Positions 21,801 through 60,800 of a stretch of 64,000 nt of DNA are shown here, piece after piece. The first letter of the stretch is position 1. Every line of letters starts with the position of its first letter. Origin of the DNA: Amoebophrya sp. A120 (Eukaryota > Protista > Dinoflagellata); assembly GCA_905178155.1 (NCBI GenBank), contig CAJINV010000034.1, forward strand, positions 1-64,000. Reading direction: 5' to 3'. A model generated the notes under the pieces. It did no database searches, had not been told where the DNA came from, and worked only from the letters and a program-made list of their open reading frames with translations. A program made the translations under genes and the position numbers.

Positions 21801-24800
21801 CTACAATCCAGTTGTCGACTACCGGCCGATGGGCTCTGGTAGTTACTCAAGTGTCATCGGTGCGGATGGGTTGCCAATGACGGCCATGTCCGATTTCCAC
21901 TACGCTTCTGGGACCACGGTGGAGACGAGAGAATTGCAAGTCCAGGAACACCAGCAACAGTTCAAACAGGTCGGGGAGTTGCTAACGCTATCCGAACAGC
22001 AAGCGAAGGTCGCTCCTTATATGACTTTAGGGAATGCGAGGTATACGAGGTTGGGAAACGAGAACAAGCAGGTTCTGAACAACAACTTCCAATCACCGAC
22101 CGTGAACTTGATGCAGGATTCGATCATTTTACACGCGCCGGATTTGGAAGACGGGAGTACTTCTGGGAAGTGCTCAAGCTTTATGAGAGTGCACAACTCC
22201 CCCTCCCCCTCATTTGTATAGCATGAACGGCAATACAAGCATCAACGTGAGTGCCGGTTTTGCATGACAAATTTGCACTGGAGTGTAGTGCTATTTGGGC
22301 CACCAGAACTTGTCATGCAAACAGTGCCAAGAGGCAAAGGGTGAGTTGGGTATTTTGCATGACAAATGAACGGGGAGGGGGAGTGGTGCACTGTCATAAG
22401 CTTATCCAACGTCGAGACGGACTTCTCTGCTTCCCCAGCGTACCGTCCCTACAACAGCCCGGCCACTGGTAAGCAAGTCGCCATGTCCAGTACAGGTTTA
22501 TTGTCAGAAGAGATGACAGCGACGAAATCGATGTTAGAAGACATGTCGTACTCCCAAGACTGCTGGAAAACGGATTTGCTCCGGGGGCACTACCCCTGCG
22601 ACTCGCCGATGTACTTGGAAGCTGTAGCGGACTACAACGCGGCGGTGATTGCCGCGGCGACTCTGGCTATCAAATGTAAAAATGTGTGGGTCTGGAAACT
22701 TGTGATGCTGGGTGGCGTCTCATGATGAGGCCACAAGTGCTGGCTCAGCATGACAAGTTTCTGAGCTTCTAGGTGTTGCGTATTCTGCATGGCAAACTGC
22801 GTTTCTGCATCATAAAACAATGGAGCTCTTGGGTAACGTGCATGACAGATTTAAGAGTCATGCCAGACAAGCATGACAAACATGCACTCTTCCAGACCCA
22901 GACAATTTTGCACTTGATACTGGCGGCGTCGGGGACAAACACGACTAGAAGAACGAAAACCATCGAGACGGATGTGATTTCCGGTCCGGCGTACATCGAT
23001 GAAATAGCAACCCCGCCGAGCTGCTTTGTCCACAATGACGTGTCAATCACATTGTTCAATGCGCCAAAGTATCCTGTGCAAAAGTATCGTACTCGTACTA
23101 ATTGCAATCATGCATGACAAGTCTTGTTTCTTAGCGAAATCAGCATTACAAATTCCATTTTTCGTTCTGGAAAAATTTGCATTGCGATTTATACTAGTAC
23201 GATACTTGTGCAATGCATACAAAGCAGAAGATGGACAGGATTATCGCGGAGATGGATCCGTGTAGCAACTACGTGAACGTCACGAAACGGTATGGATTGC
23301 AAAAATGTCTGGGTCTGGAAGATTGCTAGACTTGATGTCGTGCAGGTTTTCCATAACTCATGAGGTCTGGTATGTAGGACATAGCATGACAGATTCTGCA
23401 AAAGAACCTTTCCAATGCCTATCCTGCATGAGAAACTGCCGCTCAATTAGGTAAGGCAGGTCAGCCACACATAGCGCCCACTGGTTGTAGCCATGCGTAA
23501 GCAATCGATAGCGGTTTTGCAGGCGCAGCCGGGTGGTAGTTAGGAAGTGGATCGTGTCTCCACCTAGGGGTATCGGCAGAGGCTAAGTCTGTTCTAACGC
23601 CCAGGTATTGGCAGAGGCTAAATCTGTTCTAACGCCAGGAGTTAAATGGTGCTACTACTACTAATTAGGTCAAAAGTGCACAACTTTTGGCAATCATGCA
23701 ACACAGTTTTTTGCCTGATTCAGATTTAGCATGACAAGTTGCATTCTTCCAGACCCAGACATTTTTGCATTTCATAAACGAATCGACTACACAAAAACGA
23801 CGACCTCAACGATGCCGCCCTTCGTCCTGCCGAACGCTACAGCTCCTCGTTGCTGCGACCAGAATGATGATGAGTTTTTTCAGAAGTTGGTGCAGAATTG
23901 TCGATTAGTGCACAACATCGACGGCTTTTACATTTGCGCAAGACAAAATGCGCTGAACATGACAAACGTCCCCTTGAAACCGCTGGTAGACCTAAACAAC
24001 TTGACGACAGATGCAGACGACGTGTATCAAATGCAAAAATGTCTGGGTCTGGAAGATTGCCAGGTTTGTCATGCACATTTTGAATGACCCATGATGTCTG
24101 TGATGCATGCCCTAGCATCACAGATTTTTGGAACAATTTGCGATGCCTCTACCGCATGAGAAATGCCCTCTCCGCGTAGCTCAAACTGGAGTCCTCTTGC
24201 TGGTCATGCAATACAAATTTTTTTAGAATCCAGAGACAGCATTACAAGTTTAGAATCTTCCAGACCCAGACATTTTTACAATCCATAACGTGGTTGTTGG
24301 AGCGACTTTTTTCCACGACAAATACGGGTATTACGGCGGGAATAATACAAATGATCCAGTGGGGCTTGCGTTTAACCAAACTGTGAAGCTGTTTTCCCAG
24401 TTACTAGACCAGGACGGGAACGGGAATATCGACTTGGGGCCAGTTGTATGCATTGCAAAAGCATCGTACTAGTATAAATCGCAATACAAAAAATTTTCTC
24501 AGAAGGAAAAATGAAGTTTGTAATGCTGATTTGGCTAAGAAAAAAGGTTTGTCATGCATGATTGCAATTAGTACGAGTGCGATGCTTTTGCACAGGATAA
24601 GTTGGTTCTTCCATCAACGGCGCTTTGATCAAACAACTCGGCTGCAGCTTCGTTTTCACGATTAGTGAGGAGAACGATTTACAGCCAGAAACATATCTTT
24701 TCAACAGCACGAAAAACCCGAACAGAACAACTATCGGTATCCAGACGAATGACTTTTTCACGGAAGAACAATCCTGGCTGACGTTCGATTATCCGAACGT

Positions 24801-27800: not shown

Positions 27801-30800
27801 GTTGACTTCGACTACTATCCTGTGCAAAAGTATCGTACTCGTATTGCACTCGTGCATTACAAATCCTTTTGTTGTTGTAAATACGCATTACAAATTTCAT
27901 TTCTCATGCTGAGGAAATTTGTAATGCATTCATACGAGTGCGATACTTTTGCAATGCATAACCACGACGACCACCGCGACGCCGGAGATCATTGAAAGAA
28001 CGAAAGAGGAGTTGGTGATGGTGAACTCCACGGTGTATGATTCAACCTCCGGGCAGAACATCACCGTTTCGAACTTCGTCATGCAGAACGTGACGAGAAA
28101 CGTGTCCTTCGCCCAGTATCTCACCGAAATCGGCCCGAACGCGACTGCGGCTTATTTCGCGCCTGGGCCGGATATCCGATATGCAAGAAAAAAACTGTGG
28201 AAGTGTAAACCTGTGATGCAGAACATGCCACAGAGTTACACCTGTCATGCCAGACAGCCATGCAGTCCCCTTTTCATATGTGTTTTCCCTTACAAACTAC
28301 GCATGACAGGTTTTTTATGTCATGTAGAGCAAATTTGTGATACTGTCAGCCAAAGATAGTTACACTAACACAGTTTTTTTCTTGGATATCCGACGGGAGA
28401 ACTTGAATAGACTGGAGGAAGTTGCTTGCACAATTGAGAAAGAGTCCGTGAACAAGGTGAATCGGGATGAAGAATTGGATCTGATCCTCCTCTCCGATAG
28501 AGAACGGAGGAAATACTTCACGCCCGGCGTGCCGCAGTTTGTCAACACCATGACCATGATTAACGAGTACCAGCCACCGATGATGCCAAACCCACCGAAT
28601 TTGACTCATTTGCGCGAAGTGGAAAACAGGACTGATAGTCAAATTCAGCAACAAGTCGATTACTACAACCAGGTGACGGTGCACGACCCATTGTACAGTG
28701 CTATGCCCAGTAAGACGAAAACCTTGAAATATCATTTGTAAAAACGTCCCCACATCAGAGTCAAGATGGGAAATCTGCTAGACAAATCAGCCAGCTTCGG
28801 TCGTCTGGCATGAAAAGTTTGCCCGCGTAGTGTAATCCTGTTCGGGTAGTTCAGCAGCGTCACAGATCTAGTCCGTCATGCTGATTATAGCATCACAAAT
28901 TGAAACTCCAAAACACGACTAGAAAATGCCTCTCATGGCCCTCCGCATGAGCATGACGAACTTTTTTGGCATGCAGATTTGCATGACAGCTCTGGGGTGG
29001 GGACGTTTTTCCTCAGGATATGAAAGACTTAGTCGTCCAGGAATCCCACTCCTGCGGGACTGGGGTTCCCTGCTGGAAAAACGAAATCGTCCGTGGGTAT
29101 CCGAGGTGCGGTGCGTTCTTACCCGAGGGGCTGCCTGATCTCGACGATATCAGCAAGACCTACACGACGCCGAGTATCACCCACGTCCAGCACATTTACC
29201 CGAACAGCACAAAATTGCTAAACCGGTGGCTGGAGAACCGGGCGAAACAGAGAGCGGTGAACTTAGCGAGTCAAAACATCTCCAACCACACAGTGCAGGA
29301 TGTGGTTTGCTACGAGGAGGACACGCATTCGAGTTTCATCGTGTTCAAAAACACAAATTCGAGCACTACGCCTCTGATTATCCTCAACCAGGAGATGTGT
29401 AGCCACGATTCTATCACGAATGAGCCGATTCTGCCGACCTGGTTGGATAAACTGTGCTACAGTTTCGTGAAGCACAAGATTGTGATTTTTGAGGAGATCT
29501 TGGCGGAATTCGACGAGGCGCTGCCGTATGGAAGGGGAATTTGTTGCCGCATGCACGTTGTATTCTTGCATGACAAAATTCTTTTCGGAAGAAGCTTATC
29601 CAGCAATACAAGTGTGTGCGCTGTCAACATGTTGTCACTGACCGAAGTTTGTCATGCATTTTCTCTGTGTAGTAGGTACTACTACGGCAAATTCACCATG
29701 CATATCCTCCTACACCGTGCGTACCAGAACTACACGGAGTGGTTTTTGGAGCAGGTGGTATCCTGTGCAAAAGTATCGTACTCGTATTGCAATCATGCAT
29801 TACAAATCTTCTTGTTCTTTTTAAAGTAAATCCGCACGACTACAAATTTTATTTCTCATGCTCAGAAAATTTGTAATGAATTAGCATTTATACGAGTACG
29901 TTACTGTTGCAGTTCATAGGTGGTAATCAACAACAATTGGGCGATGACGATCGAAGACACGGCTTTGTACGCTGCGGACGGAACGACGTTGCTGAATGGT
30001 GTTTACGAGAACAGAACGGTCACGAATGCCAGCACCAACGGGACCTCTGTAGAGCAATTCCTGATTGGCTACGAAAACTACACCGATTACTTGAACATGA
30101 CCGGTTGGAACCCGGACAACCTCACCGACCCGACCGACGTAACAGACACCGAGGCAACGAAATACCTCAACGCGGTTATCAAGCGCATCCCCTACGCGGA
30201 TAGGAAATCACGGCTGGCGATTTCGAGGGCTTTCGAGCAAGAGCTGGAGTACAGGTGGAATTTCCAAACGGAGAAAAATGTCAATGGAACCCTCTCAACC
30301 CAGTCCGCGGTGTACTTCTTCGGCACGCCGAAATGCTTACTGAACTTAAAGCCGTGCTATTGCGACGAGATGTGCAAGCACGAGCGCAATCTAGATTGCT
30401 GCTTGCACTGCTGGCCGAAGTCGGACGATCTGAAGCAGTGCAGTATCCCCGCGACTAGAACCCCGACATCCAGTTGGCATGCGGAAATAAAGCAGAAGTT
30501 TGAGATGTGCGACAATAGCTACCGGTGGTTCGAATCTCAGCAAGTCGCATCGAGGCAGTGGCTATGCATTGCAAATACGTTTGGGTCTGGGAGAATGCAC
30601 CTTCTGATGCTGTCTTCGGATTATAAGAAAATCTGTGTTGCATGACCAGCAAGAGGAGTCGACTTTGTGCTACGCGGAGAGCAGGGCATTTGTCATGCAG
30701 TATACGCATCAGAAAGCCCCCCTCAAAAATTCTGTGATGCTAGGGCATGTGTCCCAGTTCGAGAAGGTACCCCCGGAGCGGTAAGGTACCTCTGGAGAAA

Positions 30801-33800
30801 GAGAACCCCCCGAAAAGCAACCACCAACATACGAAAAGGACAGGTGGAAACCGCGAAGCGAACAATCTCCGCGCACAAGAGACGCACTCGCAGCGCCATA
30901 CTTTACAAAACGTAGGAAGAGAAGGGGCGCAAGGACAAGAAGCGTCGCTGCGAGCCAAACAGCGCGGAACTTTGGCGTGCGTGATTCCTAGCGCGCGCGC
31001 GCGCGACTTCGACGCCAGCGGCTCTTGTCGGTCTGTTTATTTGTTTTTGGCGCGCGCGCGCGCGATGCAGTACGACGCAGCACGCAGCGCATTTGAAGAT
31101 ACTTCTCGAGGCGCGCGCAACGGTAGCGCGCGTCGCACTTTTAAAGCAAGTGAGTGAGGGGCGGACAGGAAGTAGGCGTCACCATCTAAAACGACTTCGC
31201 TGCGGCATTGCAGGTACCGACCCGAACCGGGGTCGGAGAACATCCGACCCCCGCGTTGGGAACGTACCAGACAGTTTGAGAAGGTACCTGCCGGAGAAAA
31301 TAGGCGCCCCCCCATACGAATGAGGAGCGCCTTTTCGTCATACTAAAGCGCTATTTGTTCTAGCATTTTTAGGCACGGGGCCGGTTTTGAACTGGGGGTA
31401 CAATGCTGAACCGGGGACCCGTTTGAACGGCTACACATGCATCACAGACATCATGATCATGGGTCATGCAAAATGTGCATGACAAGTCCTGCACTCTTGC
31501 AGACCCAGACATATTTGCAGTTCATAGTGGCTCACCGCCGATCGGCACAACTATGTGGAATTCTCTGGCCGGGATATGATCTTCTTCGATAGTTTGCACA
31601 AGACCTTCGAGTATGCATTGCAAATATGTCTGGGCCTGGAAGGTGGTGACTTGTCATGGTAAATCTGAAGCATACAAAAATCTGTGTTGCATGAGTGCCA
31701 AAAGGTGTCCATTTTCGACCAAGTTGGGAGGGAGTTTCTCATGCAGGATAGGCATGGCAGAGATCTCGCAGAGCCTGTTATGCTAAGCCCTGCATTCCAG
31801 ACCTCATGGGTCATGGAAAATCTGCATGACAATTTTACACTCTTCCAGACCCAGACATTTTTGCACTTGATATCGAAGGCGTCCCGAACGCTTTGCGAAC
31901 CCCCTTCGTCACCCAGTTCCGGAAATCCCAGGGGCAGGTGGTGAATCTCGAGCTCTTCATCTCTAAAAACATCACCGATCACCGGAACGCGCAGATCTCG
32001 AAGCCGCAGCCTTGTTGGGCCGAATCTTTGAACCGGGAGTCGATTATTTTATCCAATCTAGACGACCAGAGCAGAGCTGCTACTACTTGTGACGGAACTT
32101 CCTTCTGCCTCCAAGACATGACGAAAGGTTATCCGAATTTAAACACTTGTCCAACCGATTACTCAGTCGTGGAGCGGACGTTTGAGATGATCCAAGCCCC
32201 CCCGGATGAGAACGGGACGGTTTTGTTCTTGAAACCCCTAACTGAAGAAATCCAAAAAAGGAAGATCACGAACACGCGAGGGTCAGCGACGGTGGTATTG
32301 CGGTACAACACGACGGAGGAGGTGGAGGTGGTGGAATATGATGAAGAATTCTTGGACTACCTGGTGCAGACGAGATTGGTCACGAGCAGGTTTGACTTCA
32401 AGCGGGCGATTGCTGGAAATCAGTCGAATGGCACCAACGACACGAACGGCACAGTTTCGAATGACAGCAACATGACGACCGCAGGCGATCAGCAGCAGTA
32501 CGAGATTTTCACGAACTTCAGCTACGAAAACGTCACAACGAACGAGTCCAATGTCTCCCTCGGGATTCAGGAACTTCGCTCCATGGTCAACCAAACGGTG
32601 GAGCAGCGGGTGGAAGAATTGGATGTCTGCTACACGGACGTTTTGGCGTCTAACTTCACTATCATGCTGGAGAATCACGTGAACTGCACAAGCTTGGAAT
32701 CCGGGGACTGCTGGAAGGACATCCCGGTGCGGAATTACCCAAAGTGTGAAAAACACTACACTTACGAGTTTGAGGAGGAAGAAATCACAACTGCAGCTGG
32801 GACCACGACTATCAGGAGAATTTTAAAGGAAAAAACCGAGTGGATATCGCCGAACCGGAATGCGAATGCCGGAACTTATCAAATGCAAATATGTCTGGGT
32901 CTGGAAACTTGTGATGCTAAGATCTTACTATGGTAGACACACTGCAATGCGCAGCCAAGCATGACAAATTTTTGGGCTGCTATTGTGTTTCGTTTTCCGC
33001 ATGGCAAACTGCGTTTTTGCATGACAGGCGTTAGGCCTGTTGCCCCCTCATGCATCACAGATTTATGAGTCATGCCAGACAAGCATGACAAACTCGCATT
33101 CTTCCAGACCCAGACATTTTTGCATTCGATAGAACTTATCAAGACACCATCTGCTGGCACAACGAGAAAAACGCGATCAAATTTGAGCACATTAGCAGCA
33201 CGTTGGAGCATGACAACGTGACGCTCGGGTTTCCGAGGTGTGACTGGCAGTTGCGGGACGTGAACTTGCAGACGCCGGAGGCGAATGATTTGTTCTACAC
33301 GAAGGAGAACGTCGAGAAGATGCAGAACAGGCTGTTGCACATAAGCATTGCAAAAGTGTCGGACTAAGTAGAAATAGCATGACAAATTTCTCCAGAAGGG
33401 AAAATGAAATTTGTAATCCTGAATGAGCTTTAGAAACCAGATCTGTCATGCATGGCTGCAATTTGTTGTACGAGTGCGAAGATACTTTTGCAGAGCATAG
33501 CACAACAACACGTATAATTTAACAAGTGACGCGATCTGTTGGACGAACGGGACGACTTTCAGGGTGATCGAGTACCACCCGTATTTGATGGAAAACAACC
33601 AACCTCTTGTGGTCAGGGATGAGTACGAGGCGCACGTGCGGTTCTACTCTTTAGGTAGTCCGAACTGCGAAGCAAGCACGCAGAACTGCTACTGCGATTC
33701 CATTTGCCACTTGCTGCGGTTTAATGATTGTTGTCAACAGTGCTGGAAGAACGAGGCGCTCGGCTGCGACTATCAAGCGAAGCTATCCTCCCGGTTCCAG

Positions 33801-42800: not shown

Positions 42801-45800
42801 TTTCAAAAAATCGACGATCACCGATGCCAGTGCCGACGCGGTAGTAGTCCGGGACTCGACTTTCAACGATATGAACTGCAAAAGTATCGTACTCGTCTTG
42901 CAATCATGCATTACAAATCTTTTTCTTAAGGTAAATCTGCATTACAAATTTCATTTCTCATGCTGAGGAAATTTGTAATGCATTTATATATGCGAGTGCG
43001 ATACTTTTGCAGTTCATAAACGACGACATTCAGCAAAACGTGTTCGTGAAAACACGCGGACGGGCGGTTTTGGTGGAGCAAAAAGCGAGAAATGTGAAAT
43101 TGATCGCAAATAATTTCTTAGGACATATTCTACATCCTCGAACTGCGGAAATAAGGAAAATGAAGGCGGAAGACACGGCCTTGCGGATTTTGGGGAAGTC
43201 ATCAGATTACAGCCCAGAAGCGGTGGTCGAGATCCAGTCGCGGAGAGGTTTAGCGACAGAAGAATTCTACGAGTACGTGACAACCGAGCAGCAAGTCGAC
43301 TCTGATAATGACGGGATTTTGGATACAACCACGACAATCAAGACGATGACGACGTTCTATTCCCCGATAAGTGAAATGCGGCAGAACTACATTGGTGGCT
43401 TATCCTGAGCAAAAACGTCCCCATCCCAGAGTCAAGATGGGGATCTCGCAATACAAATCGAGAAGTTTTATTGGGAGTCAAGCATGACAAGTTTGTCTCT
43501 GTATTGTATGTAGTGAGGTCACCGAACGGTTCTAACCAGGGAGTTTTCTTGACATATACCCTGAAAAACGACCGGCAGTTTTCAAGCGGTCGGAAGCGTT
43601 TTTTGACAAAAAAAAATTTCAATTATCAAGCGGCCCTGGCTGTGTCGGCACCGAATCGCCAGCGGATTCTATCGATCGCCGCTTGGTAAAACGACGCAGA
43701 GAAGCCAGCAAAAGGGGCGCCCTTCTGAGGCGCCCACCGCCTTAGTTTCTGGCGGTCTGGGGCGCCCAAAAAGGAGCGCGAAAAAAACGCGCCCAAAATC
43801 AGAACAGCGAAACAGCATGGCACGGCCACGGTTCCGGAGCATTTTGGGCGGCCGCGAAAGCGGCCGCGTTGTCGCCGGTGTCAGAGCCTGGGAAGGTTTG
43901 CAAAAAGCGCCGGCTAGAAAAATAGAAACGCAAAAAAGCAAAAGCGCGCCAGACGCGCCAAGCCAATCCGCATGCTATGGGCCCGATTTTTCTTCGCTTT
44001 TTGGGCGCCCCCCGTGGCACCCGGATCGGCCCTATAGCATGGGGGCTGGCTTTCGGAAAGGACTATCGGGAATTTGCCAAAATTTGCGACGTTTACCAAG
44101 CGGCCGCCATACCGTGCGGCCTAACGTTACTCGCGGCGGTATGGCGAGGCCAGAAAAAGCAAAGCCGCGGCCAAGGCGACGGCCGGCAAGAAAACGCCCA
44201 CGACCTCACTACCCCCGCCCCGGCGGCTATATTTGGTAGTGCAGTTTAGCAAGTACAGCCGCAACGCAAATCCATTAGCTCATCTTGTTTAGAGCATTAC
44301 AAAGTCCAAAACACGATTGGAAATAATGCTTCTCGTGGGGATGCGCATTACAAACTTTTCTGTGACTGGAAATCTGCATGACAACCCTGGGGTGGGGACG
44401 TTTTTACTTGGGATATGGGTGTTACGACATCGGGATGCAGTACAGGCCGGACAAAACGACAATCTACGATGCGGATAATTTCGACACAGATATCCCTGGT
44501 GCGAAGAGGATCGCGAAGATTGCGAATAACGAGGTGTCTGGCTGTGTGATCGGGTTCTTCTTGCTAAGGCCGTGTGATTTACATGGTGGTGGCCCGAGCT
44601 ACGGGTGCGCGGAAAGGGGGATTCACGAGGCGATATTGCAAGGAAAAATCCCCCCTCCCCATATTGAAAGCAGAGCATTCTGAAAATTTGTGATGCAGAT
44701 TTGTGACCACAGATTGGGTCTGTCTTGCAGATAGGGACAATCAGGCTGCCCGCCACGTTATGCAGGCGCTTTGTAAAAATGCTGTAAGGCCTACAGGGTA
44801 GCCGTCAACCGTGCTAGGCGCCTACACGAGAAGGCCCGTGCCTAGGCGTGGGGTCTCTCTGCGTGCAGTCCTCTACTGCAACACACATTTGATTCGTGTA
44901 GCCAAAGCCGGCATCAGAAATTCACGGCTTGTTTTGATATGGGGAGGAGGGATTTATTTTCCTTTGGATAGGCGAAGGTCGGGAAGCTCTTCGCTTGGCG
45001 GAACAGCCACGTTGGGATTTTCTTCACGGATTTCCCGTCGAGACTCCACTTCGTCAACGTAACTGTATCGGAGAACCACATTGGCGTCACGGGTAGCTTC
45101 CACCGGATGCCGGGGGATCATGACTTAACATCAGATTTATTCACCATGACGAATTGCACGGTGCAAGGGACGGACGAAGATCAGTACTTGGCGTCGTGTC
45201 CGGGTTACACGTACATGATCCAAAACAGCAATACTGCTAAAACTGGATCTTCCTTCGACAACGCTAATTGCTTCAATTACAACTACTTTGACAAACTCGC
45301 GTATCACACAGGAAGAAGGTGGCAAGGCACCACATTTGTCATGCAAAAATAACTACACAAGAAAATTTCTCTTGCATATCTGAAACAGCATGCTATGGGC
45401 GAGCGCGAGCCCCTTGAGCAGTAGATGAGATCTGTCTGTGAATTCATTCTATGCATTACAAACATGCCTAATACCGGCTTTTTTCTGTGTGATATCGCGA
45501 CAAAGTGCACGTCGATGGGAAGACGGTTCCACCGGATGGGCATCTTGCTCCCTACAGTATCGAATCTGGGAAAAACGTGCGAAGACGGCATGGAAGTGAA
45601 CGGGTACAGCAATAAACTACCCGACGGAGGAGCGGCGGCATTAACAACATCCTCCACAACCAGCTTCCGAACTTGCGGCACTGCATCCTCGATGAACAGC
45701 CGAAGACCAAACATCCCGGAGAGGGCGTGTAATTTACCGTATGATTCGCGGTTTGGTCTACGGGGGTCGCGGTTCGCCACGTATTACTTCAAGAATACGT

Positions 45801-48800: not shown

Positions 48801-51800
48801 ATGTTGGCGACGAGTTATGAGTGTGCACAACTCGTCCCCCTCCCCCTCTCCTGTAATATTGCGAGGAAAAGCAATACAAACACCAGCACACATGGAGCCT
48901 TTGCATGACAAGGAGGTCATGCGCCACCTAGTGTAGTACTGTTTGAGCTTCCGGACTTTGTCATGCAAACGGTGCCACAAGGACAAGGCAGCAGTTGGAT
49001 TTGATATTTTGCATGACAAATGCGGGTGAGTCTCCTGACCCTTCTGGTCGTCACCATTCCGCCGGTGTCTGTGCTCTCGGGCGCGTCACCCACCTCAGGA
49101 CCTCAGGACCTCAGGTTAAGAGTTTGTCGACGTAATTTACAAAGGGACGCCCTGCCCTTAGTTTCCCAACATGACAAATGCGGGGGGAGGGGAAGTTCTG
49201 CAGTGTCATACGAGTGTCTCGGTCTTGATCAAGGAAGACGCGGAGCAGCCGGTATGCAAGACAAAAACGTATTCTGTCATCACATTGTCAACTTGTCATG
49301 CTATTTTGGAGCTATAAATTCTTTTGCCTTCGTGCCTGAGTTGCATGACAAACCGAAGCTGGTCATGCCGAGCTGTGCTACATGAAGAAGCCTCATGACG
49401 GTGGTCTACTTTTTGTCTTGCATATTCCACATCACTTTCGGACACACCAATTTCGGCGACTACCACTTCTTCTACCACTACAACTTCTTCAACGCTTTCG
49501 GCGAACGAAACAGCACTACTTGAAGACGACGCGGACAACGACACTAACGTTACGACGATTATCACAACCACAACCGCAGCAGCTTCTTCTTCTACCGTGC
49601 AGCAACTCCCTTCGTTTACGAACCTCCAGCAGATTTCCACACAGATCAACAGCGGCGATTTCGTCACGAACTTGACAACCACTTCCGGGATCCAAGTGCA
49701 GCAGATTGCAGCGACGCCGCCGACCCCGGTGCAGCAGTCCACGGCGACGTACGTGTGTGATGCGAACGGGGTGTGCAGCTGTATCAAAGACTACTACGGG
49801 CAAGGGTGCGCGCAGAAGTGTCAATGCACAACGACCGGAACGGTGAAGTGCAACGATGGAATCGACGGGGATGGCAGTTGCGTCTGCAAACCACACTTCG
49901 CGGGCGATCGGTGCGAGAGATGTGGTATTTAAATAAAGTGATCGCGCTTTTAAGCAGTGGGACAGAAATTTTTGTTTCTGTATTTGATTGTTGTAGCTGA
50001 CAGCTTCGGAGTTCAGCGTTTGTCCACTTCTTCGCCCCTCATTCGGACACCTTTCGCCTCGCTTGTTTGGTGTTCGGAGTTATTTGGTAGTACTAGTCAG
50101 AGCTGTTATAGCCCCCTGAATCAAGCAACTATTGGGCAGTAGCAACACAAACTGAAACTGAATCGAACTTCAACATCAACCAAATTTACACCCACGATCA
50201 TCCACCCCCAGGTACCTTCTACTTCGGCAACACGTGTGAGTATCTTGGGCATCCGGGTCTCACTATGGCTGAGGTCAAAGCCTTGTCGATTTCCAATCTT
50301 TACCGCGGCTACACTTGCGGCAACCACGGATCCATTCTCTACGACACAAACGCGTTGACGGGACTAGTTCTCCCTTCCGGCTGCTTCTGCGACGCGGATT
50401 ACTACGGGATGGTGACGTTTCAGTGGCCGTATTCAACCGATTGCGCCGCGTTGGACGCGTTGGGGAACATATTCCACGAAAAATCTGTTTCACTGTGAGG
50501 ATTTTGCAAGAACCGCACCACAAGTTTGCTACACATGACACAGAAAATTTGCCATGCGCGCTTCCCAAGGGAAAACACGCTTGAGAATCCAATATCTTGC
50601 AGGTGTAGCAAGACAAATAGTTCTGTGCTCTATTTTCTGCATCACAAGTTCACAGACACAGCGAAGCAGTTTTTTCTTGCGATGCAACATGCTTTCCGAT
50701 GCGGGTTCCGCAATGCGACCAGATAGTGGGTGTCAAAGGAAAGGTATGACGAGCACAAGCATCCTACTTGAACTAGTAGTTCTTGCAATACAAACTTGAA
50801 TTAGCTTTTAGCATGTTGACATCAAGTGAAACTTGTCATGCTGCTGCAGGTTTGGAAAGAGATTTGTCTTGCATGATTGTGATCACCACGAGTGTGATGC
50901 TTTTGCAGAGGATACAAGGCGGTTTCACCAACGCGAATATCACGGCTGGATCGGTAATCACCACTTATCAAATGCAAAAATGTCTGGGTCTGGAAGCTTG
51001 TGATGCGTGGTGGCGTCTCATGATGAGGCCACAAGTGCTAGCTCAGCATGAAAAGTTTCTGAGCTCCTTCTAGGTGTTGCCTATTCTGCACGACAAACTG
51101 CGTTCCTGCATCACAGAAAAATGGAGCTCTTGGGTAACGTGCGTGACATACTTAAGAGTCATGCCAGACAAGCATGACAAACATGCACTCTTCCAGAACC
51201 AGACATTTTTGCACTTGATACCACTTCTACCGGTACAATAACCGTCGCGACGTACAAGACAACCGATTACCAAATCCGCTGCGAGTACCCGTGCAAGTGC
51301 AACAAAATTGGCACCAGGCATTGCGTCAACGAGCAATTTAACCCGACGACGCAAGGCGCGTGCCTCTGCAACCCAACCTTCCAGGGGACGTTGTGTGAAA
51401 AATGTATCACAAACTACTACGGCAACGCGTGCGACCGATTCTGTTCCGCGGAGCAGACCTGTCAGGGCAGAGGGGTTTGCTCGGAGACGGGGCTCTTATG
51501 AACTGCAAAAGTATCGTATTTGTATAAATGCATTGCAAATTTCCTCAGAATGAGAAATGAAATTTGTTATGCGGATTTACCTCAAGAAAAAGATTTGTAA
51601 TGCATGATTTGCAATACGAGTACCGTACGATGCTTTTGCAATGCACAGCTCTGTATCTGCAGCAACGGGTGGTACGGGGACAACTGTGAGAAACTCACCT
51701 GCATGAGCTGCAACGGCTTCGGATCGAACGGGTTGTTAGGGTGTGAGTCCATCGCCGGGCCAGCCTGCGACTGCGCGACGGACTACTCGGGGAAAACGTG

Positions 51801-54800
51801 TGAATTCCGGGTGGCGTGGCAAATCGGGCCCTGGGGGCTTTTATGCATTACAAAAATGTCTGTGTCTGGAAGATGCCATGCTGTTTCTGCATGACACAGA
51901 AGGTCTGGCATGCCAGCCCTAGCATCATAGATTTCGAGAAGGTTCTGCAATGTTGCCTAATCCGCACGACAAATTCCTCACTTTGGTGACAAGAAGTGGG
52001 CATCTTTTGCTGCCTATGCATGAGAGATTTCTGTGTGTTGTGAAATGCGCATCACAACTTCACATCCTTCCAGACCCAGACATTTTTGCAGTTGATAACT
52101 TTGCACGTATGAAGAGCCAACCCAGAGTTGCGGGAAGGGCACGCAGAACCGGGTGATTGGGTCGCACATGTACAACCATGTGAACGTCACGAACCCGATT
52201 GTGTATGTGCCAACGGTCCCCGCTGGGCTATTGCCGCAATTGTTGAAGAAACCGCTAGTGCAGCAAGAGTGTCAACACCCGTCCAGACCGTCCTGTCACT
52301 GTTTCTTCGCTTTACCAACCGTGGCCAACGGCGCGCCGGCGACAACTTGCGATCCGTTCTACGACGGTGGGTTTTGCCCGCTGATCTTATGCAACAGAAA
52401 ACTGTGTAAGTGTAAATCTGTGATGCAGAAAATGCAAAACAGTTACACTCATCATGCTGGAATTGCGTCATAGGCTACTATCATACGTGTTTCCACATGC
52501 TAGCTGAGCATGACAGCAAAACGAATTTGTGATTCTGCTCTTCTTACAAAGTTACACTTACGCAGTTTTTTATTTACTGGATAGATCTGCAACGACGGAT
52601 ATTCGGTCATCGGCGAGGGCTTTCGGTGTTACAAGGGAGCGCTACAGCAACCCTTGCCCTATTGCGTGGAAAACGCGGAGACGCAGAAGTTCGGGAGTCT
52701 TGGTGCGTTCCAGCAGATATGAAAGTGCACAACAACTCCCCCTCCACCTCATTTGTATAGCATGAACGGCAATACAAGCAGCAGCATCAGCTGCAACGAT
52801 GCCGGTTTTGCATGACAAATTTGCACTGGAGTGCAGTGGTGCTATTTGGGCGACCAGAACTTGTCATGCAAACAGTGCCAAGAAGCAAAGTGTGGATGTG
52901 GTATTTCGCATGACAAATGAGGGGAAGGCGGGGCAGTTGTGCATTGTCATAGCAGACTCTGACGTTCCAGATTTTTGAAGCAGCGGACGAAGCGAAGTGG
53001 GAGGCAGGTTTGAAGTATCAAATGTAAAAATGTCTGGGTCTGGAGAATACAAACTTGTGATGCGCATTTCAGAGCACAGAAAAATCTCTCATGCATAGGC
53101 AGCAAAAGTTTCCACTTTCTGCCACCAAAAGGGGGGATTTGTCATGCGGGTTCGGCATTGTGAACGCTTCTCGAAACCTGTGATGCTAGAGCTTCCATGC
53201 CAGCCCTTCTTTGTCATGCAAAAACAGCATGACTCTTCCAGACCCAGACACTTTTGCATTTGATATGAAGGTAGCGATTCCAGTAGTTTTAAGTCAGATG
53301 ACGGGAGTGGACGTGGAGGATATTCTGGTGCCGACAGTGGACGACGGGAACGTTTTTAATAGGAGGAAAGCGAGCACGAAAACGGCTTTTTCATCCTCCA
53401 CAGCTGCCCAGAATCTACTCTCTGCACCAGGAGATGAACCAGAAAGTGCTGCAGAACTTCTTCTGCACGAGGAACAGTCCACAGCTTTAGCAATAGTTCC
53501 AGCAGCGACAACACCGGACCAAAAGAAACGCAAGCTTTCTCTTTCCAACGCCACCCCGTTTGTCGTCGTCTACCAAGTGAAAATCCGAGACACTACCCGG
53601 CAGGTCGCGATCCAGTTCTATTTGAGCTCCATCGCGAGTAACCCCAACGCGGCGTTCACGACGAATCTCGCAGCGGAATTAGTCAACCACGGCATCCCCA
53701 ATGCCGTCGCGGATCTGGCGGTCGGGTTTCTGATCACCATGCCGCAAGAAGCGCAGGTGTTCGAAATTGCGGTTACCACCACAATATGCATTACAAAAGT
53801 GTCTCGGTCTGGAAGGTTGCAACTTGTGATGCTGTCGCTGGGTGCTAGAAAAATAAAAATTTGTGTTGCATGACCACCAAGAGGAGACCAGTTTGTGCTA
53901 CGCGGAGCGGGCGTTTGTCATGCGGAATAGGCAGCAGCAAGCCCGAAAAAAATATGTGATGCGTGGTCATGCATTACAGGCATCATGGGACATGCAGAAT
54001 ATGCATGACAAACCTGGCAATCTCCAGGACCCAGACATATTTGCAATGCATATCCAACAACATCAACCACTACAATCACCGTAACAACAACGCAAGGAGC
54101 TGCGGCGGAAACCACAGCGGAATCAAAAACGGACTTCTTCTCCTCCGGTTTATTCTTTGGGCTAATTGGCGCCGCGTCGGCAATTTTTGTCGGTGTAGTC
54201 GGGTTTTTGATTTACAAGTATATCTATTTAGCGCATTTGGAGAAGAAACAACAGAAATATTTGGAAGAGAAGGAGAAGGAAAGAGTGGAAGACCAGAAGC
54301 AAGTGCACAGGAGAGAAGGCAGGGTCGTGACGAAGGGCGCGGACATCTTGTTACCCAATGTTGCGGATCGGGAATACGAGGACGGTTCGCATATGGATTA
54401 CAAATATGTCTGGGTCTGGAGGGATGCAACTTGTGATGCTATCTTAGGACTCGAGAAAAATCTGTATTGCATGACAGACACAAGGCGGAGTCCAGTTTGT
54501 GCTACGCGGAGAGGGTCTTTGTCATGCGGATTAGGGATCAGGAAGCCTTCTAAAAATCTGTGACACTAGGTCATGCATTAAAAACGTCATGGGTCATGCA
54601 AAATATGCATGACAAACCTGGCAACCTTCCAGACCCAGACATATTTGCATTTGATATCGCAGTATTGGGGCACAATGAACGCGAAAAACCTAAAGCATGG
54701 TACTTATTTTATGCGCATGAATGTTGATAGATTTTGTCCTGGGATTTCTGAAAGACTTCACTTCTGCGGCTTTTGGCCTTCCGCCCGTTTGTCTAATTTT

Positions 54801-57800
54801 GCCCAAAAGGGAGACTGGACAGACAAGAATCCGCTCGTGTTTAGCAGATTAGACAAACGCTGGCTGGGGGGCTGTGGCCGGGGCGAGGCCATTTGCGTCT
54901 TCCGGATCTGCTAAACAGGAGCGGACTCTTGTCCGCAAAGCTCTACTTTTGTGGCTTTTGGCCTTCCGCCCGTTTGTCTAATTTTGCCCAAAAGGGAGAC
55001 TGGACAGACAAGAATCCGCCCGTGTTTAGCAGATTAGACAAACGCTGGCTGGGCTGTCGCCGGGGCGAGGCTATTTGCGTCTTCTGGATCTGCTAAACAG
55101 GAGCGGACTCTTGTCCGCAGCGCTTCACTTTTGCGGCTTTTGGCCTTCCGCCCGTTTGTCTAATTTTGCCCAAAAGGGAGACTGGACAGACAAGAGTCCG
55201 CCCGTGTCTAGCAGATTAGACAAACGCTGGCTTGGTTGTGGCCGGGGCGAGGCCATTTGCGTCTTCTGGATCTGCTAAACAGCAGCGGACTCTTGTCCGC
55301 AAAGCTTCACTTTTGCGGTTTTTGGCCTTCCACCCGTTTGTCTAATTTTGCCCAAAAGGGAGACTAGACAGACGAGAATCCGCCCGTGTTCAGCAGATTA
55401 GACAAACGCTGGCTGGGCTGTGGCCGGGGCGAGGCCATTTGCGTCGCCTGGATCTGCTAAACAAGAGCGGACTCTTGTCCGCAAAGCTTCACTTTTGCGG
55501 TTTTTGGCCTTGCGCCCGTTTGTCTAATTTTGCCCAAAAGGGAGACTGGACAGACAAGAATCCGCCCGTGTTTAGCAGATTAGACAAACGCTGGCTGGGC
55601 TGTGGCCGGGGCGAGGCCATTTGCGTCTTCTGGATCTGCTAATCAGGAGCGGACTCCGGTCCGCAAAGCTTCACTTTTGCGGCTTTTGGCCTTCCGCCCG
55701 TTTGTCTAATTTTGCCCAAAAGGGAGACTGGACAGACAAGAATCCGCCCGTGTTAAGCAGATTAGACAAACGCTGGGGGGGCTGTGGCTGGGGCGAGGCC
55801 ATTTGCGTCTTCCGGATCTACTAAACAGGAGCGGACTCTTGTCCGCAAAGCTTCACTTTTGCGGCTTTTGGCCTTCCGCCCGTTTGTCTAATTTTGCCCA
55901 AAAGGGAGACTAGACAGACAAGAGTCCGCCCGTTTTTAGCAGATTAGACAAACGCTGGCTGGTCTGTGGCCGGGGCGAGGCCATTTGCGTCTTCTGGATC
56001 TGCTAAACAGGAGCGATATCTTGTCTGAAAGACTTCACTATTGCGGTTTTTGGTCTTCCACCCGTTTGTCTAATTTTGCCCAAATGGGAGATTAGACAAA
56101 CAAGAAACCGTTCCTGTTTAGCAGATTAGACAAACGCTGGCCGCTGGGTTGTGGCTGGAGCGAGGCCATCCGCGTCCTCTGAATCTGCTAAACAGGAGCG
56201 ATATCTTGTCTGAAAGACTTCACTTGTGCGGTTTTTGGCCTTCCACCCGTTTGTCTAATTTTGCCCAATTTGGAGATTAGACAAGCAAGAAACCGCTCCT
56301 GTTTAGCAGATTAGACAAACGCTGGCTGGGTTCTGGCTGGGGCGAGGCCATTTGCGTGCCCTGAATCTGCTAAACAGGAGCGGATTCGTGTCTGAAGGAC
56401 TTCACTTTTGCGGCTTTTGGCCTTCCGCCCGTTTGTCTAATTTTGCCCAAGAGGGAGACTAGACAGACAAGAGTCCGCCCGTGTTTAGCAGATTAGACAA
56501 ACGCTGGCTGGGCTGTTGCCGGGGCGAGGCCATTTGCGTCTTCTGGATCTGCTAAACAGGAGCGGACTTTGTCCGCAAAGCTTCACTTTTGCGGCTTTTG
56601 GCCTTCCGCCCGTTCGTCTAATTTTGCCCAAAAGGGAGACTAGGCAGACAAGAGTCCGCCCGTGTTTAGCAGATTAGACAAACGCTGGCTGGATTGTGGC
56701 CGGGGCGAGGCCATTTGCGTCTTCTGGATCTGCTAAACAGGAGCGGACTCTTGCCCGCAAAGCTTCACTTTTGCGCTTTTTGGCCTCTCGCCCGTTTGTC
56801 TAATTTTGCCCAAATGGGAGACTAGACAAACAAGAAACCGCTCCTGTTTAGCAGATTAGACAAACGCTGGCTGGGTTGTGGCTGGGGCGAAGCCGCTTGC
56901 GTTTTCTGAATCTGGTAAACAGGAGCGGACTCTTGCCTGAGAGACTTTACTTTTGCGGTTTTTGGCCTTCCACCCGTTTGTCTAATTTTGCCCAAATGGG
57001 AGACTAGACAAACAAGAAACCGCTCCTGTTTAGCAGATTAGACAAGTCCTGGCGGGGTTGTGCCGTGGGTGGGGGTAGTACCTGCGTCTTCTTCAGAAAG
57101 TACTTGATAGAAAAATTACAATCAGAAGTAGACAAGGTGAAACTGAAAATCATCAAAACAGCACACAACACATTACGCACACCATAATCTTCAGGTATCG
57201 GCGTTTTAAAACTTCCTGCGTCCACCTACCGTGGCCACTTTGTCTACGATGAATTCCACGGATTGGGCCTGATGTGCTGGAAAGCGGGTGTTGTGTACGG
57301 TGGAAACTGGAAACACAACGAGATGTTTGGCTGGGGCTCGTTACGGGTTCCGAGAAAGTACGTCTACAAGGGCCAATTCCTGAACAACGAAAGACACGGG
57401 TACGGGAGGTGCGAGTGGTTCGAGTCCGGGGAATATTATGAAGGCATGTGGGTGAACGGGAAAATGTATGACTTGCAAAACAAGTATCGTACTCGTATAA
57501 ATGCATTACGAATTTTATCACAGGGGCAAATGAATCACATTACAAATGAATCACCATACGGAAAAAAAAATTTTTCCAAGTACCGCAGTGCATGGCCCGG
57601 CTCGCACGCATAAGGTAGCGCCCAACATATCCAACCAAATAACCTGAGACACAGCGACGCTCGTCAGGAAAGTCGCGCCTTTCTCGATAAGGTTTGCGCT
57701 ATTTGGTTGGTGGCTACGGGGGACGAACGCAGTGGCCATGAGTGTATGCTGGGGCCATCCCGCCTGAATAGCTTGCAAACAACTCGGGGGAAGCATTCGC

Positions 57801-60800
57801 AACCCAAAATACCAAGCAAAAGCCCATTGCTAAAGATAGGGAAAACGACGCCACAAAACTGAAGTGATTACACCTCTATACCGTCGGGCGTAGCGTCCCG
57901 AGGGTGTCGCATTTTCTGAAAAAAGGTCAATTTTTGCCAAAAATTCATCTTTTTCGAGGCAAAAAAAGAGGTGTAATCACCTTGCGTTTTGTAGCTATCA
58001 ATTAGCCCTATGATTCATTTGACTCCTCCCGCTTAGTATCTGCTTGAATCACCTCTGCAAAAAGTCGCGACTTTTGGCATCAAATTGATGCCCGAAACGC
58101 GTCTTTTTCGCGTCAAATCACCCAAGCAGATATCAAGTGGGTTTGCGTTTTTTTTCGTCTGAAACAGGCTGAGCATCTCAAGTGATTACACCTCCACTGT
58201 TCCACTTCCGCCACTTGGTAACAGTAGAGTAGGGAAAAAGTAAGAATAATACGCCAGTAGCACCATGCGGGGTAACATTATGCACCACGGTATGACGCTT
58301 TGGGGTTGGTCTTGGGGTATCTTCTATGACATGTTCTGCGCACTACATCTCGCAGTCTTTTCCTTACCAAAATGCGACGCCTGGGGCTTTTGGTCGCAGC
58401 CTTCTCAAGCATTCGCCCACTGCAATCTACCGACCAGCTGTGTCTGGCGCGGGGAAAAAAGCTGCAGGCGCTACGGCAGTTGGGGACGCTCCGAATTTTT
58501 TTTTTTTTCGGCCCTATGATTCTTTTGAAAGTGATTTACTTGCTCCTTTGATAAATTTCCTCAGCATGAGAAATGAGATTTGCAATGCGGATTTACGTTT
58601 AAGAAAAAGATTTGTGATGCATGACTGCAATTACTACAAGTGCGATACTTTTGCACAGGATAGAATGCACGGGCCTGGGCTGTACGGAACGGAGCGGGTA
58701 AGTGCGATTTGGAATTGGAACGAAGGGACCATGGGAAGTTTGCTACACAAACTCCCGTCTTCGGTTATCGGAGGGCCAGTGCAGTTGGTGGTGCTGGAGG
58801 CTCCGAGGTAGAGGTTTTGTCTTCTTGGTCTTCTTGCATCATGACAAAAATTTGTTTGAGTGCCTGTTTTGCAATACAAGTTTAACACCTACCACTCAAC
58901 GTTCAAAAACCAAAAACTATCAGGCGCGTCCCGGAGCTCCAGGCATCGTACAAGCAGCTCTCCACGCTTCTATGAATTGCAAAAGTATCGTACTAGCATA
59001 AATTGCATTACAAATTTGCTCAGCACGAGAGCTGGAATTTGTCATGCTGTTTCACCTTGAGGACAAGATTTGTCATGCATAATTGCAATCAGTATGATTA
59101 CGATACTTTTGCACAGGATAGCTTCTCACCCGCTACCACGTCTCCGCCGAATCAGCGAGGTCAAGTTCCCAACAAATGCTCTCCGCCATGGGGTCACCGA
59201 CGAGCCGGCACCGGTCCATGTCACCGAGACTGACCTACTCCAGCAGCATATCCTGAGTAAAAATGTCCTCACCCCCCCAGGGTTGTCATGCAAATCTGCA
59301 TGCCAAAGTAAGCCAAAAAAGTCTCTCATGCGGAGCCACATGAGAACCATTTTCTAATCCTGTTTTGGAATTTGTGATGCTAGAATCAGCATGATATGCT
59401 ACATCTGTGATGCTTCGGAACTAGCTAAACAGGAATACACTACGAGGATAAAAACCTTGTCATACGAAACAACCAGAGGTGGCTGATTTGTCTAGCGGAT
59501 TTCCCATCTTGACTCTGGTGTGGTAACATTTTTGCTCAGGATACAGCAGACCGGGGACTTCTTCTGAGCAGTTGATGCTCACTACCTACGGGTCCGCGGG
59601 CACCGCCGACTCGCAGTATCCTGTGCAAAAGTATCGTACTCGTATTGCAATCATGCATGACAAATCTTTATCTTAAGGTAAATCTGTATCTGCATTACAA
59701 ATTTTATCTCTCATGCTGAGGAAATTTGTAATGCATTTATACGAGTACGATACTTTTGCAAAGCATACGCAGAACCAAGCTACCACGGTGAGCAAGAAGT
59801 TCATATCAAATGTAAAAATGTCTGGGTCTGGAAGAATGCAACTTGTGATGCTGCATTTGGATTCCAAAAAAATCTGTATTGCATGAGTACCGAAGGGAGC
59901 GCAAGTTTTTGCTACGCTGAGAAGGCATTTGTCATGCGGAATAGGCATCAAGAAGCTCTCAAAAAATCTGTGATGCTAGGGTATGCATCACAGACATCAT
60001 GGCTCATGCAAAACGTGCATGACGAATCTCGCAATCTTCCAGACCCAGACATTTTTACAGTTGATAGTTCATGAACGTGAGCAATTTGCACGGGGTGCGG
60101 AACGCACATTCAATGTCCCCGTCGCAAAGAGAAACGATCCGGAAAGCGGTGACAAGTGGTGCGGCGAGTTCCAGTAGGCACGATTTTCAGTACAGCACGA
60201 GAACTGGGGTATCTTCGACGGGAGAGGATTCGCAGATGGAGCTCTACGACGGTCCGGAAGTGTTCGGCGGGAAGACTTCCACATTGGCAGACCGATACGC
60301 AAGACAGATCGACACGAACCGGAGTCAGTCACCAAGGTATAGCAGCCCGCACGATACAACCGGCGGAGGGAACAACGATACCGGTGGATCGGCGCGGAAG
60401 ACGCAGAAGAAGGACCTGAAACCGCCAACGTATCTTTTGATATTGAATAAATGTGTTGCGAAATAAACGCATGGCATGACAAACTGTGTTTCCACATCAT
60501 AGTGCAAAATTTCGCATGACAAAATCACTTCCAAAAATGATTTCTATCAGCCTCGACACGCAAAAAGCCCGGGACAAGATAACGCCTGCGATTCAGGACC
60601 AAATGGGCGCGGACGTACCGCCAAGACCGGGATCGTTATCCATTGCAAAAGTATCGTACTGACTTTAACTAGTAGAAGTAGCATCACAAATTCGATGGTC
60701 AGGAGCATGAAAAATGGAATTTGTAAAGCTGGTTAGAGTACATCAAACATTGACCTGTAATGCGTGACTGCCATTATTACCACGAGTACAAGGTATTTTT

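Follow-up and report, generated by a model that had tools for sequence, protein, structure and literature searches.

A 1038-bp inverted-repeat element nested within an older introner of a MORN-repeat gene in Amoebophrya sp. A120

Introduction

Can an intron that arose from one mobile element still be removed from the transcript after a second mobile element has landed inside it? This question is raised by a locus in a 64,000-nucleotide stretch of Amoebophrya sp. A120 DNA (contig CAJINV010000034.1, positions 1 to 64,000; hereafter the window), where a 1038-bp element with terminal inverted repeats (TIRs) lies within a family B introner that itself interrupts a gene encoding MORN repeats. The element as such adds little, since TA-ended introners of about 0.8–1.2 kb with 5-bp target-site duplications (TSDs) are already catalogued for A120. 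The locus, in which two nested end-paired stems still give a correct mRNA, offers a way to test whether splicing is defined by stems and in which order it proceeds, and the recognition of non-canonical introns is a question in an organism reported to lack U1 small nuclear RNA. In addition, the near absence of introner-in-introner insertion offers a measurable handle on exon placement, whether this reflects targeting, immunity or selection.

Results

The 1038-bp element occurs once in the window, and the original prediction described its outline correctly: it begins and ends with TAT...ATA and is flanked on both sides by an exact AATTT direct repeat (Table 1). An end-anchored method delimits an imperfect TIR of about 55 bp with 76% identity, whose score of 27 was reached in none of 200 shuffles (shuffle maximum 11), and the ends carry no long direct repeats. 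The claim that these TIRs are much longer than those of the short introner families does not hold, as the same method returned arm medians of 48, 45.5, 96, 36, 43.5 and 62 bp for six such families (54 copies); the method may over-extend in hairpin-like elements, the best-defined short-family arms measuring 25–37 bp at 81–97%. The internal gtgattacacctc repeats are present as predicted, except that the second copy starts at 58182 instead of 58183.

Deletion by coordinates of the insert together with one AATTT copy yielded a 153-bp element that is 64–90% identical to all 14 aligned family B copies, and the empty-site sequence matched 175 library introners; the two host halves are collinear with family B. 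The prediction that deletion regenerates the family B consensus is thus borne out for the family and not to the letter, the base just left of the target being G in the host copy and A in the consensus. Removal of the host introner plus 5 bases in turn restored the reading frame of the MORN-repeat exon. When 1030 candidates were searched with a downstream exon, two homologues emerged, one an MMETSP transcript (62%) and the other a protein of Amoebophrya sp. A25 (55%), both of which run uninterrupted across the insertion site. The host introner is older than the nested 1038-bp element, and the order of nesting is established.

Splicing of the locus was followed by comparing four sequencing runs over positions 57050–60150, where the exons were covered by run X3 alone; X3 consists of contigs, presumably derived from RNA, and its sample differs from that of the DNA runs. 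Record 1 of X3, a contig of 3771 nt at depth 13.8 whose three listed pieces show 0 differences, joins position 57462 to 58664. The 1201 nt that it lacks correspond to the 1196-nt composite of host and insert plus 5, that is, one target copy, and the record retains the left copy of the mismatched target base. This record represents a spliced molecule, because joints of equal depth omit the ordinary GT-AG intron and the next four introners (155, 300, 156 and 268 nt, each the element plus 5). The 1201-nt intron offers GT-AG in no register, and the short introners of the locus are likewise lost with one target copy regardless of their end dinucleotides. In X4, a run from the same sample as X3, one 91-nt contig of depth 3 shows no difference from the window copy, which weakly suggests that the X3/X4 strain carries the insert.

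We slightly favour a model in which the composite is removed in one step. The predicted pairing of the host ends is 0.53 both with and without the insert (0.48–0.92 in five un-nested controls), and the insert's own ends pair at 0.78–0.89, with 0.89 for the terminal 23–25 nt. Since the insert is predicted to close on its own ends while pairing of the host ends is unchanged, one-step removal would be the simpler route. A two-step, twintron-like route, in which the inner 1043 nt (the element plus one AATTT) would be spliced first to restore the family B hairpin before the latter is itself removed, is possible and clearly less probable. The strong predicted pairing of the inner ends speaks for such a route, as does the loss of the short introners together with one target copy irrespective of the dinucleotides at their ends; moreover, should the element belong to the catalogued A120 family fam169 (see Discussion), four copies of that family are each annotated as an independent intron. 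The host stem is nevertheless predicted to be intact without prior removal of the inner element, and no joint dropping only the inner 1043 nt is listed for X3 at a depth of about 14, which argues weakly against it as contigs lose rare forms. Joints of nearly 1043 nt do occur in the DNA runs; they come from other family B copies, were rejected as empty alleles, and count little either way.

As to how the element moved, the prediction that it encodes no transposase is supported. The longest open reading frame (ORF) lying entirely within it spans 92 amino acids, and a Pfam scan of 35 of the 41 overlapping ORFs of at least 20 amino acids (the six omitted ones cross the element ends) yielded no transposase, integrase or recombinase match and two sub-threshold matches only; a match to DUF702 is weak (E 0.071). 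Pfam scans likewise detected no transposase or integrase in 60 of the 98 long ORFs of the window, nor in 20 ORFs from long elements of the window and of related loci. The latter are 137 loci (733 kb, overlapping) retrieved by a family B end-pattern scan from one related, fragmented assembly that shares the short families. The TIR pattern of the element had no match in viral or in metagenome contigs, the family A end pattern had none in viral contigs, and the element matched no phage or plasmid.

Several candidates were considered and rejected. Two matches of the TIR pattern in prokaryote genomes are confined to a 23–24-base motif, with about 0.5 expected by chance, and an Rfam match to U4 (E 0.71) lies far under threshold. 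Two TAT...ATA elements of 815 bp and 1104 bp in the related loci, considered as long partners, turned out to be short introners with unrelated inserts.

The ends of the element distinguish it from the short families. Its best match among 527 short elements extends to 16–17 of 25 bases, and the AAA tract found at positions 11–14 of 884 of 1054 short-family ends is missing at both of its ends. This weak end match and the missing tract suggest that the enzyme on which the element depends may not be that of families A–F. They also make it doubtful that, as the original prediction proposed, the element is the best local bait for the autonomous partner; it may bait only its own partner. If it were instead mobilised by the transposase of families A–F, it would be a deletion derivative of their autonomous parent, and we regard this as unlikely. 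The two groups do have in common the TAT start, the 5-bp TSD and a G at position 9, which 814 of 1054 library ends carry. Against this, besides the differences at the ends, the 12-bp subterminal motif of the element has no exact partner in the 137 related loci, its interior contains no coding remnant, and the element nests whereas the short families do not.

An integrase supplied in trans by a long-terminal-repeat (LTR) retrotransposon and acting on non-autonomous DNA, or else a tyrosine-recombinase route, appears very unlikely. LTR integrases produce TSDs of 4–6 bp, a range that accommodates the present case. The ORFs of the A120 family fam38 resemble Copia/Gypsy sequences (PMC12130899) and no transposase is reported for A120 (PMC7789003), both of which would be in line with such a source. 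On the other hand, the element has TAT...ATA ends with 55-bp TIRs and lacks long direct repeats, Cryptons are described as devoid of TSDs (PMC12130899), and the target 5-mers show little sequence preference.

Public DNA contigs indicate that the family has other members; these results refer to the matches listed (32 of 1447 pieces). DNA contigs cover 30 of 30 bins of the element in each of three runs from one sample. For most of the interior contigs listed from X1 and X2, the difference from the window copy amounts to about 2–5%, the other copies being some 95–96% identical to it, and in X1 these contigs reach depths of 207–289 vs 35.7 for the one that crosses the right junction specific to the window without any difference. 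This depth ratio, together with the diverged interior contigs, suggests roughly six to eight copies, most of them nearer to each other than to the window copy, depth not being equal to copy number. Record 17 of X4 parts from the element precisely at 57516 and continues into other flanking sequence, and the matches of X4 record 23 and X7 record 31 stop exactly at 58553, with 34 and 22 more letters. Since three contigs exit exactly at 57516 or 58553, the boundaries of the element recur elsewhere. Comparison with the 137 related loci revealed no copy.

As a separate observation, the match of X4 record 17 (depth 55) is confined to the initial 108 bp of the element (57516–57623), beyond which the contig is unlike it; this hints at a truncated copy or at a family member whose interior differs.

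An assembly artefact or a chance repeat can practically be dismissed: no single public contig covers the whole element and the matches listed include none for the left junction of the window copy, yet a DNA contig bridges the right junction without differences, the TSD is exact and the host halves are collinear with family B.

The exact TSD, the family B empty site and the other copies together uphold the prediction of a DNA-level insertion into non-coding DNA with a true 5-bp TSD. That length was already evident from exonic copies, 38 of 56 window elements having an exact 5-bp duplication and none an exact 6-bp one, and it has been published for A120 fam38 (PMC12130899). With TIRs, a TSD, dispersed copies that share its boundaries and no transposase ORF, the element is likely a non-autonomous TIR DNA transposon, resembling miniature inverted-repeat transposable elements (MITEs).

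In the same 56 window elements, 10 of 19 mismatches between the two target copies affect the first base, a concentration (binomial P about 0.002) that perhaps marks the splice position; a bias of these bases toward AG or AC acceptors was sought, and none was clear (G 4, C 2, T 3, A 1).

The original prediction also read the insertion as independent of exon context. With one caller, 545 distinct TAT...ATA elements with 4–5 of 5 target bases matching were collected from the related loci and the window, of which 535 had a testable flank. Of these, the 1038-bp element alone lies inside another introner. The elements called make up 27% of the window and 17% of 27 larger loci; a crude model of random insertion and steady accumulation would give about 38 nested cases, the same figures giving about 7 for the window by itself, and the caller recovered 409 of 525 simulated nestings. 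Once an element and 5 bases were removed, the frame stayed open across 180 nt for 327 of 340 sites vs 778 of 1005 random positions, consistent with exonic insertion sites. Unrelated repeats do sit within introners; the window holds at least four such cases, and the related loci about nine. As self-nesting is limited to 1 of 535 while unrelated repeats nest, introners shelter other repeats, yet elements of their own kind either avoid them or have been cleared from them. The 1038-bp copy demonstrates that non-coding DNA is a possible target for its own family, and says nothing of the sort about the short families. Independence from exon context cannot be carried over to the short families, whose almost complete lack of nesting partly reverses the earlier inference of a class-wide indifference.

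A family F introner at 43401–44415 contains an insert of about 700 bp with 11-bp inverted ends (about 43510–44211); an 82% identical copy lies in related locus L063, and size and TIR length resemble those of A120 fam26/fam71 (PMC12130899, Dataset S2). A family A introner at 23291–23776 carries a retroposon-like insert of about 220 bp with a CTA-repeat tail and 8-bp direct-repeat flanks, and a family D introner at 48816–49210 an insert of about 160 bp with 15-bp direct-repeat flanks. At 30563–31526, a family A introner with an exact outer 5-bp TSD holds an unrelated insert of about 700 bp (about 30750–31435) with a short internal direct repeat, and at 2208–2664 family A ends surround a 12-bp minisatellite expansion. 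In the related loci, one repeat family of about 0.8–0.9 kb occupies three different introner families (L003 505–1608, L027 8355–9502 and L060 8799–9843), its copies being 72–87% alike in pieces and having no obvious target duplication. A family A copy at L001 2129–2941 contains a TAT...ATA element of about 0.5 kb that has G/C-run ends and differs in TSD length, its apparent direct repeat measuring 8 bp. At L041 476–2934, family A ends enclose about 2.2 kb with a 415-amino-acid ORF on the minus strand (1514–2758) that has no Pfam match; this could be a nested coding element.

Elsewhere in the window, a coding region of great length and full of introners extends over positions 26758–54560. It includes C-type lectin and laminin-EGF domains and may encode a single large surface protein. 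It is followed by a 2.3-kb tandem-repeat block between genes (54747–57092) in which no introner was called.

Table 1. Coordinates of the nested element, its host introner and the surrounding exons in the window
Feature	Position	Strand	Remarks
Upstream coding exon, MORN repeats	57188..57466	+	PF02493, E 1.6e-8
Host left target copy AAATG	57462..57466	+	
Stretch missing from the spliced contig	57463..58663	+	1201 nt; joint slides up to 4 bases to the right; non-canonical ends in every register
Host family B introner	57467..58662	+	153 bp minus the insert; halves 57467-57515 and 58559-58662
Left AATTT target copy	57511..57515	+	5-bp duplication
TIR element	57516..58553	.	1038 bp, TAT...ATA, non-autonomous, multi-copy
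Left TIR arm	57516..57570	+	about 55 bp; 12-bp subterminal motif twice: 57527-57538, 57543-57554
Internal repeat gtgattacacctc, copy 1	57864..57876	+	inverted partner 57968-57980
Internal repeat gtgattacacctc, inverted copy	57968..57980	-	
Near-copy of right subterminal sequence 58511-58528	58005..58022	+	17/18; further inverted copy of the 12-bp motif
Internal hairpin	58028..58141	.	19-bp arms, 84% complementary
Internal repeat gtgattacacctc, copy 2	58182..58194	+	
Right TIR arm	58498..58553	-	inner edge approximate; 76% complementary to left arm; two degenerate inverted motif copies
Right AATTT target copy	58554..58558	+	junction spanned by a DNA contig, 0 differences
Host right target copy GAATG	58663..58667	+	first base differs from left copy
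Downstream coding exon	58668..58807	+	in frame once the host and 5 bases are removed
Ordinary GT-AG intron	58808..58923	+	absent from the same spliced contig; fixes the strand

Discussion

The explanation that we consider likely as a whole is that of a nested non-autonomous cut-and-paste element, moved in trans, whose composite with the host introner is spliced in one step and which probably belongs to fam169. A 1038-bp non-autonomous cut-and-paste DNA transposon would have landed in an older 153-bp introner of a MORN-gene exon, mobilised in trans, probably by an integrase-like DDE transposase. This putative enzyme would bind the repeated subterminal motif and make a 5-nt staggered cut. In the pre-mRNA, the insert is predicted to close on its own TIRs as a side branch while the host terminal stem would still bring the exon ends together, so that the inner element need not leave first and one-step splicing of the 1201-nt composite is likely. 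The other copies of fam169, the probable same family, are annotated introns in their own right.

Several points weigh against this explanation. The X3 joint would look identical if that strain lacked the insert, and the fold of a 1.3-kb RNA is a prediction only. The Pfam and end-motif scans found no transposase and no autonomous copy, and the class of enzyme is one that we infer; Farhat et al. also found no transposase in A120 (PMC7789003). Among the matches listed, no contig covers both ends of another copy, and no paired independent TSDs were seen. Finally, three other weak Pfam names given for fam169 were not recovered in the 35 of 41 ORFs scanned.

A broader proposal would join the scarcity of nesting to splicing. 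Introners would exclude one another through exon targeting or target immunity, or through purging of a second hairpin that breaks splicing; the 1038-bp family would be a separately mobilised escapee, and the composite a natural twintron whose two end-paired stems are excised in order by a U1-less, structure-guided splicing machinery. We consider this combination quite unlikely. Introners are known to be enriched in genes and in nucleosome linkers (PMC9860276). Nested introners, their scarcity and introner target immunity were not found in the literature searched, which excluded most subscription papers, bioRxiv supplements and the supplement of Farhat et al., and the word "nested" is absent from the introner papers whose text was searched.

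The closest systems for comparison are the introners of A120 itself. Their published ends consist of TAT, seven looser bases and then at least three A (PMC7789003), which is the pattern of the short families in the window, and their direct repeats are 3–5 nt long. The element shares with them the TAT start, the inverted ends, the non-canonical splice ends and the lack of a transposase gene. It differs in its length of about 1 kb, as opposed to 150–320 bp for the short families of the window, in the absence of the AAA tract after TAT and seven bases, and in lying within another introner instead of directly in an exon.

Most A120 introner families have been classed as TIR DNA elements by Gozashti et al. 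(2025; PMC12130899), and we compared all 58 A120 rows of their Dataset S2. Family fam38, Ginger-like, is listed with "5-bp TSD, TA/TA Termini", integrase-like homology, 808 bp and a TIR of 49–53, and fam196 with 811 bp and a TIR of 54–57 bp. The element agrees with fam38 in TA/TA termini and the 5-bp TSD and differs from it in length; the Copia/Gypsy-like ORFs of fam38 have no counterpart detectable by Pfam in the element. Family fam169 comprises four introns and is listed as Unknown/Unknown, with no TIR call, spans of 35–1068 and an automated 2-bp TSD at 33–34 and 1069–1070. If this 2-bp TSD is in fact the terminal TA, as the fam38 row suggests, columns 33–1070 amount to 1038. In addition, fam169 is the sole row among the 58 that names DUF702, to which the element also has its weak match, and copies are few in both. 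In contrast, the element has 55-bp TIRs and a 5-bp TSD where the listing gives no TIR and 2 bp. Three motifs of the element had no match in 14 supplements of that paper. Compared by length and DUF702 description only, the element is probably fam169.

Among integrase-related transposons, IS3EU/GingerRoot elements have TA..TA ends, as does the element, and a 6-bp TSD, in place of which the element has 5 bp (PMC10045372). Ginger1 and Ginger2 end in TGT, at variance with TAT here, although TDD-4 as well as TDD-5 shows the same 5-bp TSD (PMC2836005). The ends also fit the TNT..AYA pattern of IS481EU, for which the TSD is about 4, 15 or 25 bp and not 5, and the element provides no transposase ORF to compare (PMC10045372). 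Judged from its ends and TSD, the element seems to behave like an integrase-related transposon and yet fully matches the definition of none of these groups.

The fungal stwintrons likewise consist of one intron-like element within another. There, however, a split U2 splice signal imposes two obligatory steps, whereas here no signal is visibly split. Set against these systems, the 1038-bp element is a real, correctly bounded nested insertion. It is likely a non-autonomous TIR transposon present in few copies, its class having been published and its family probably catalogued.

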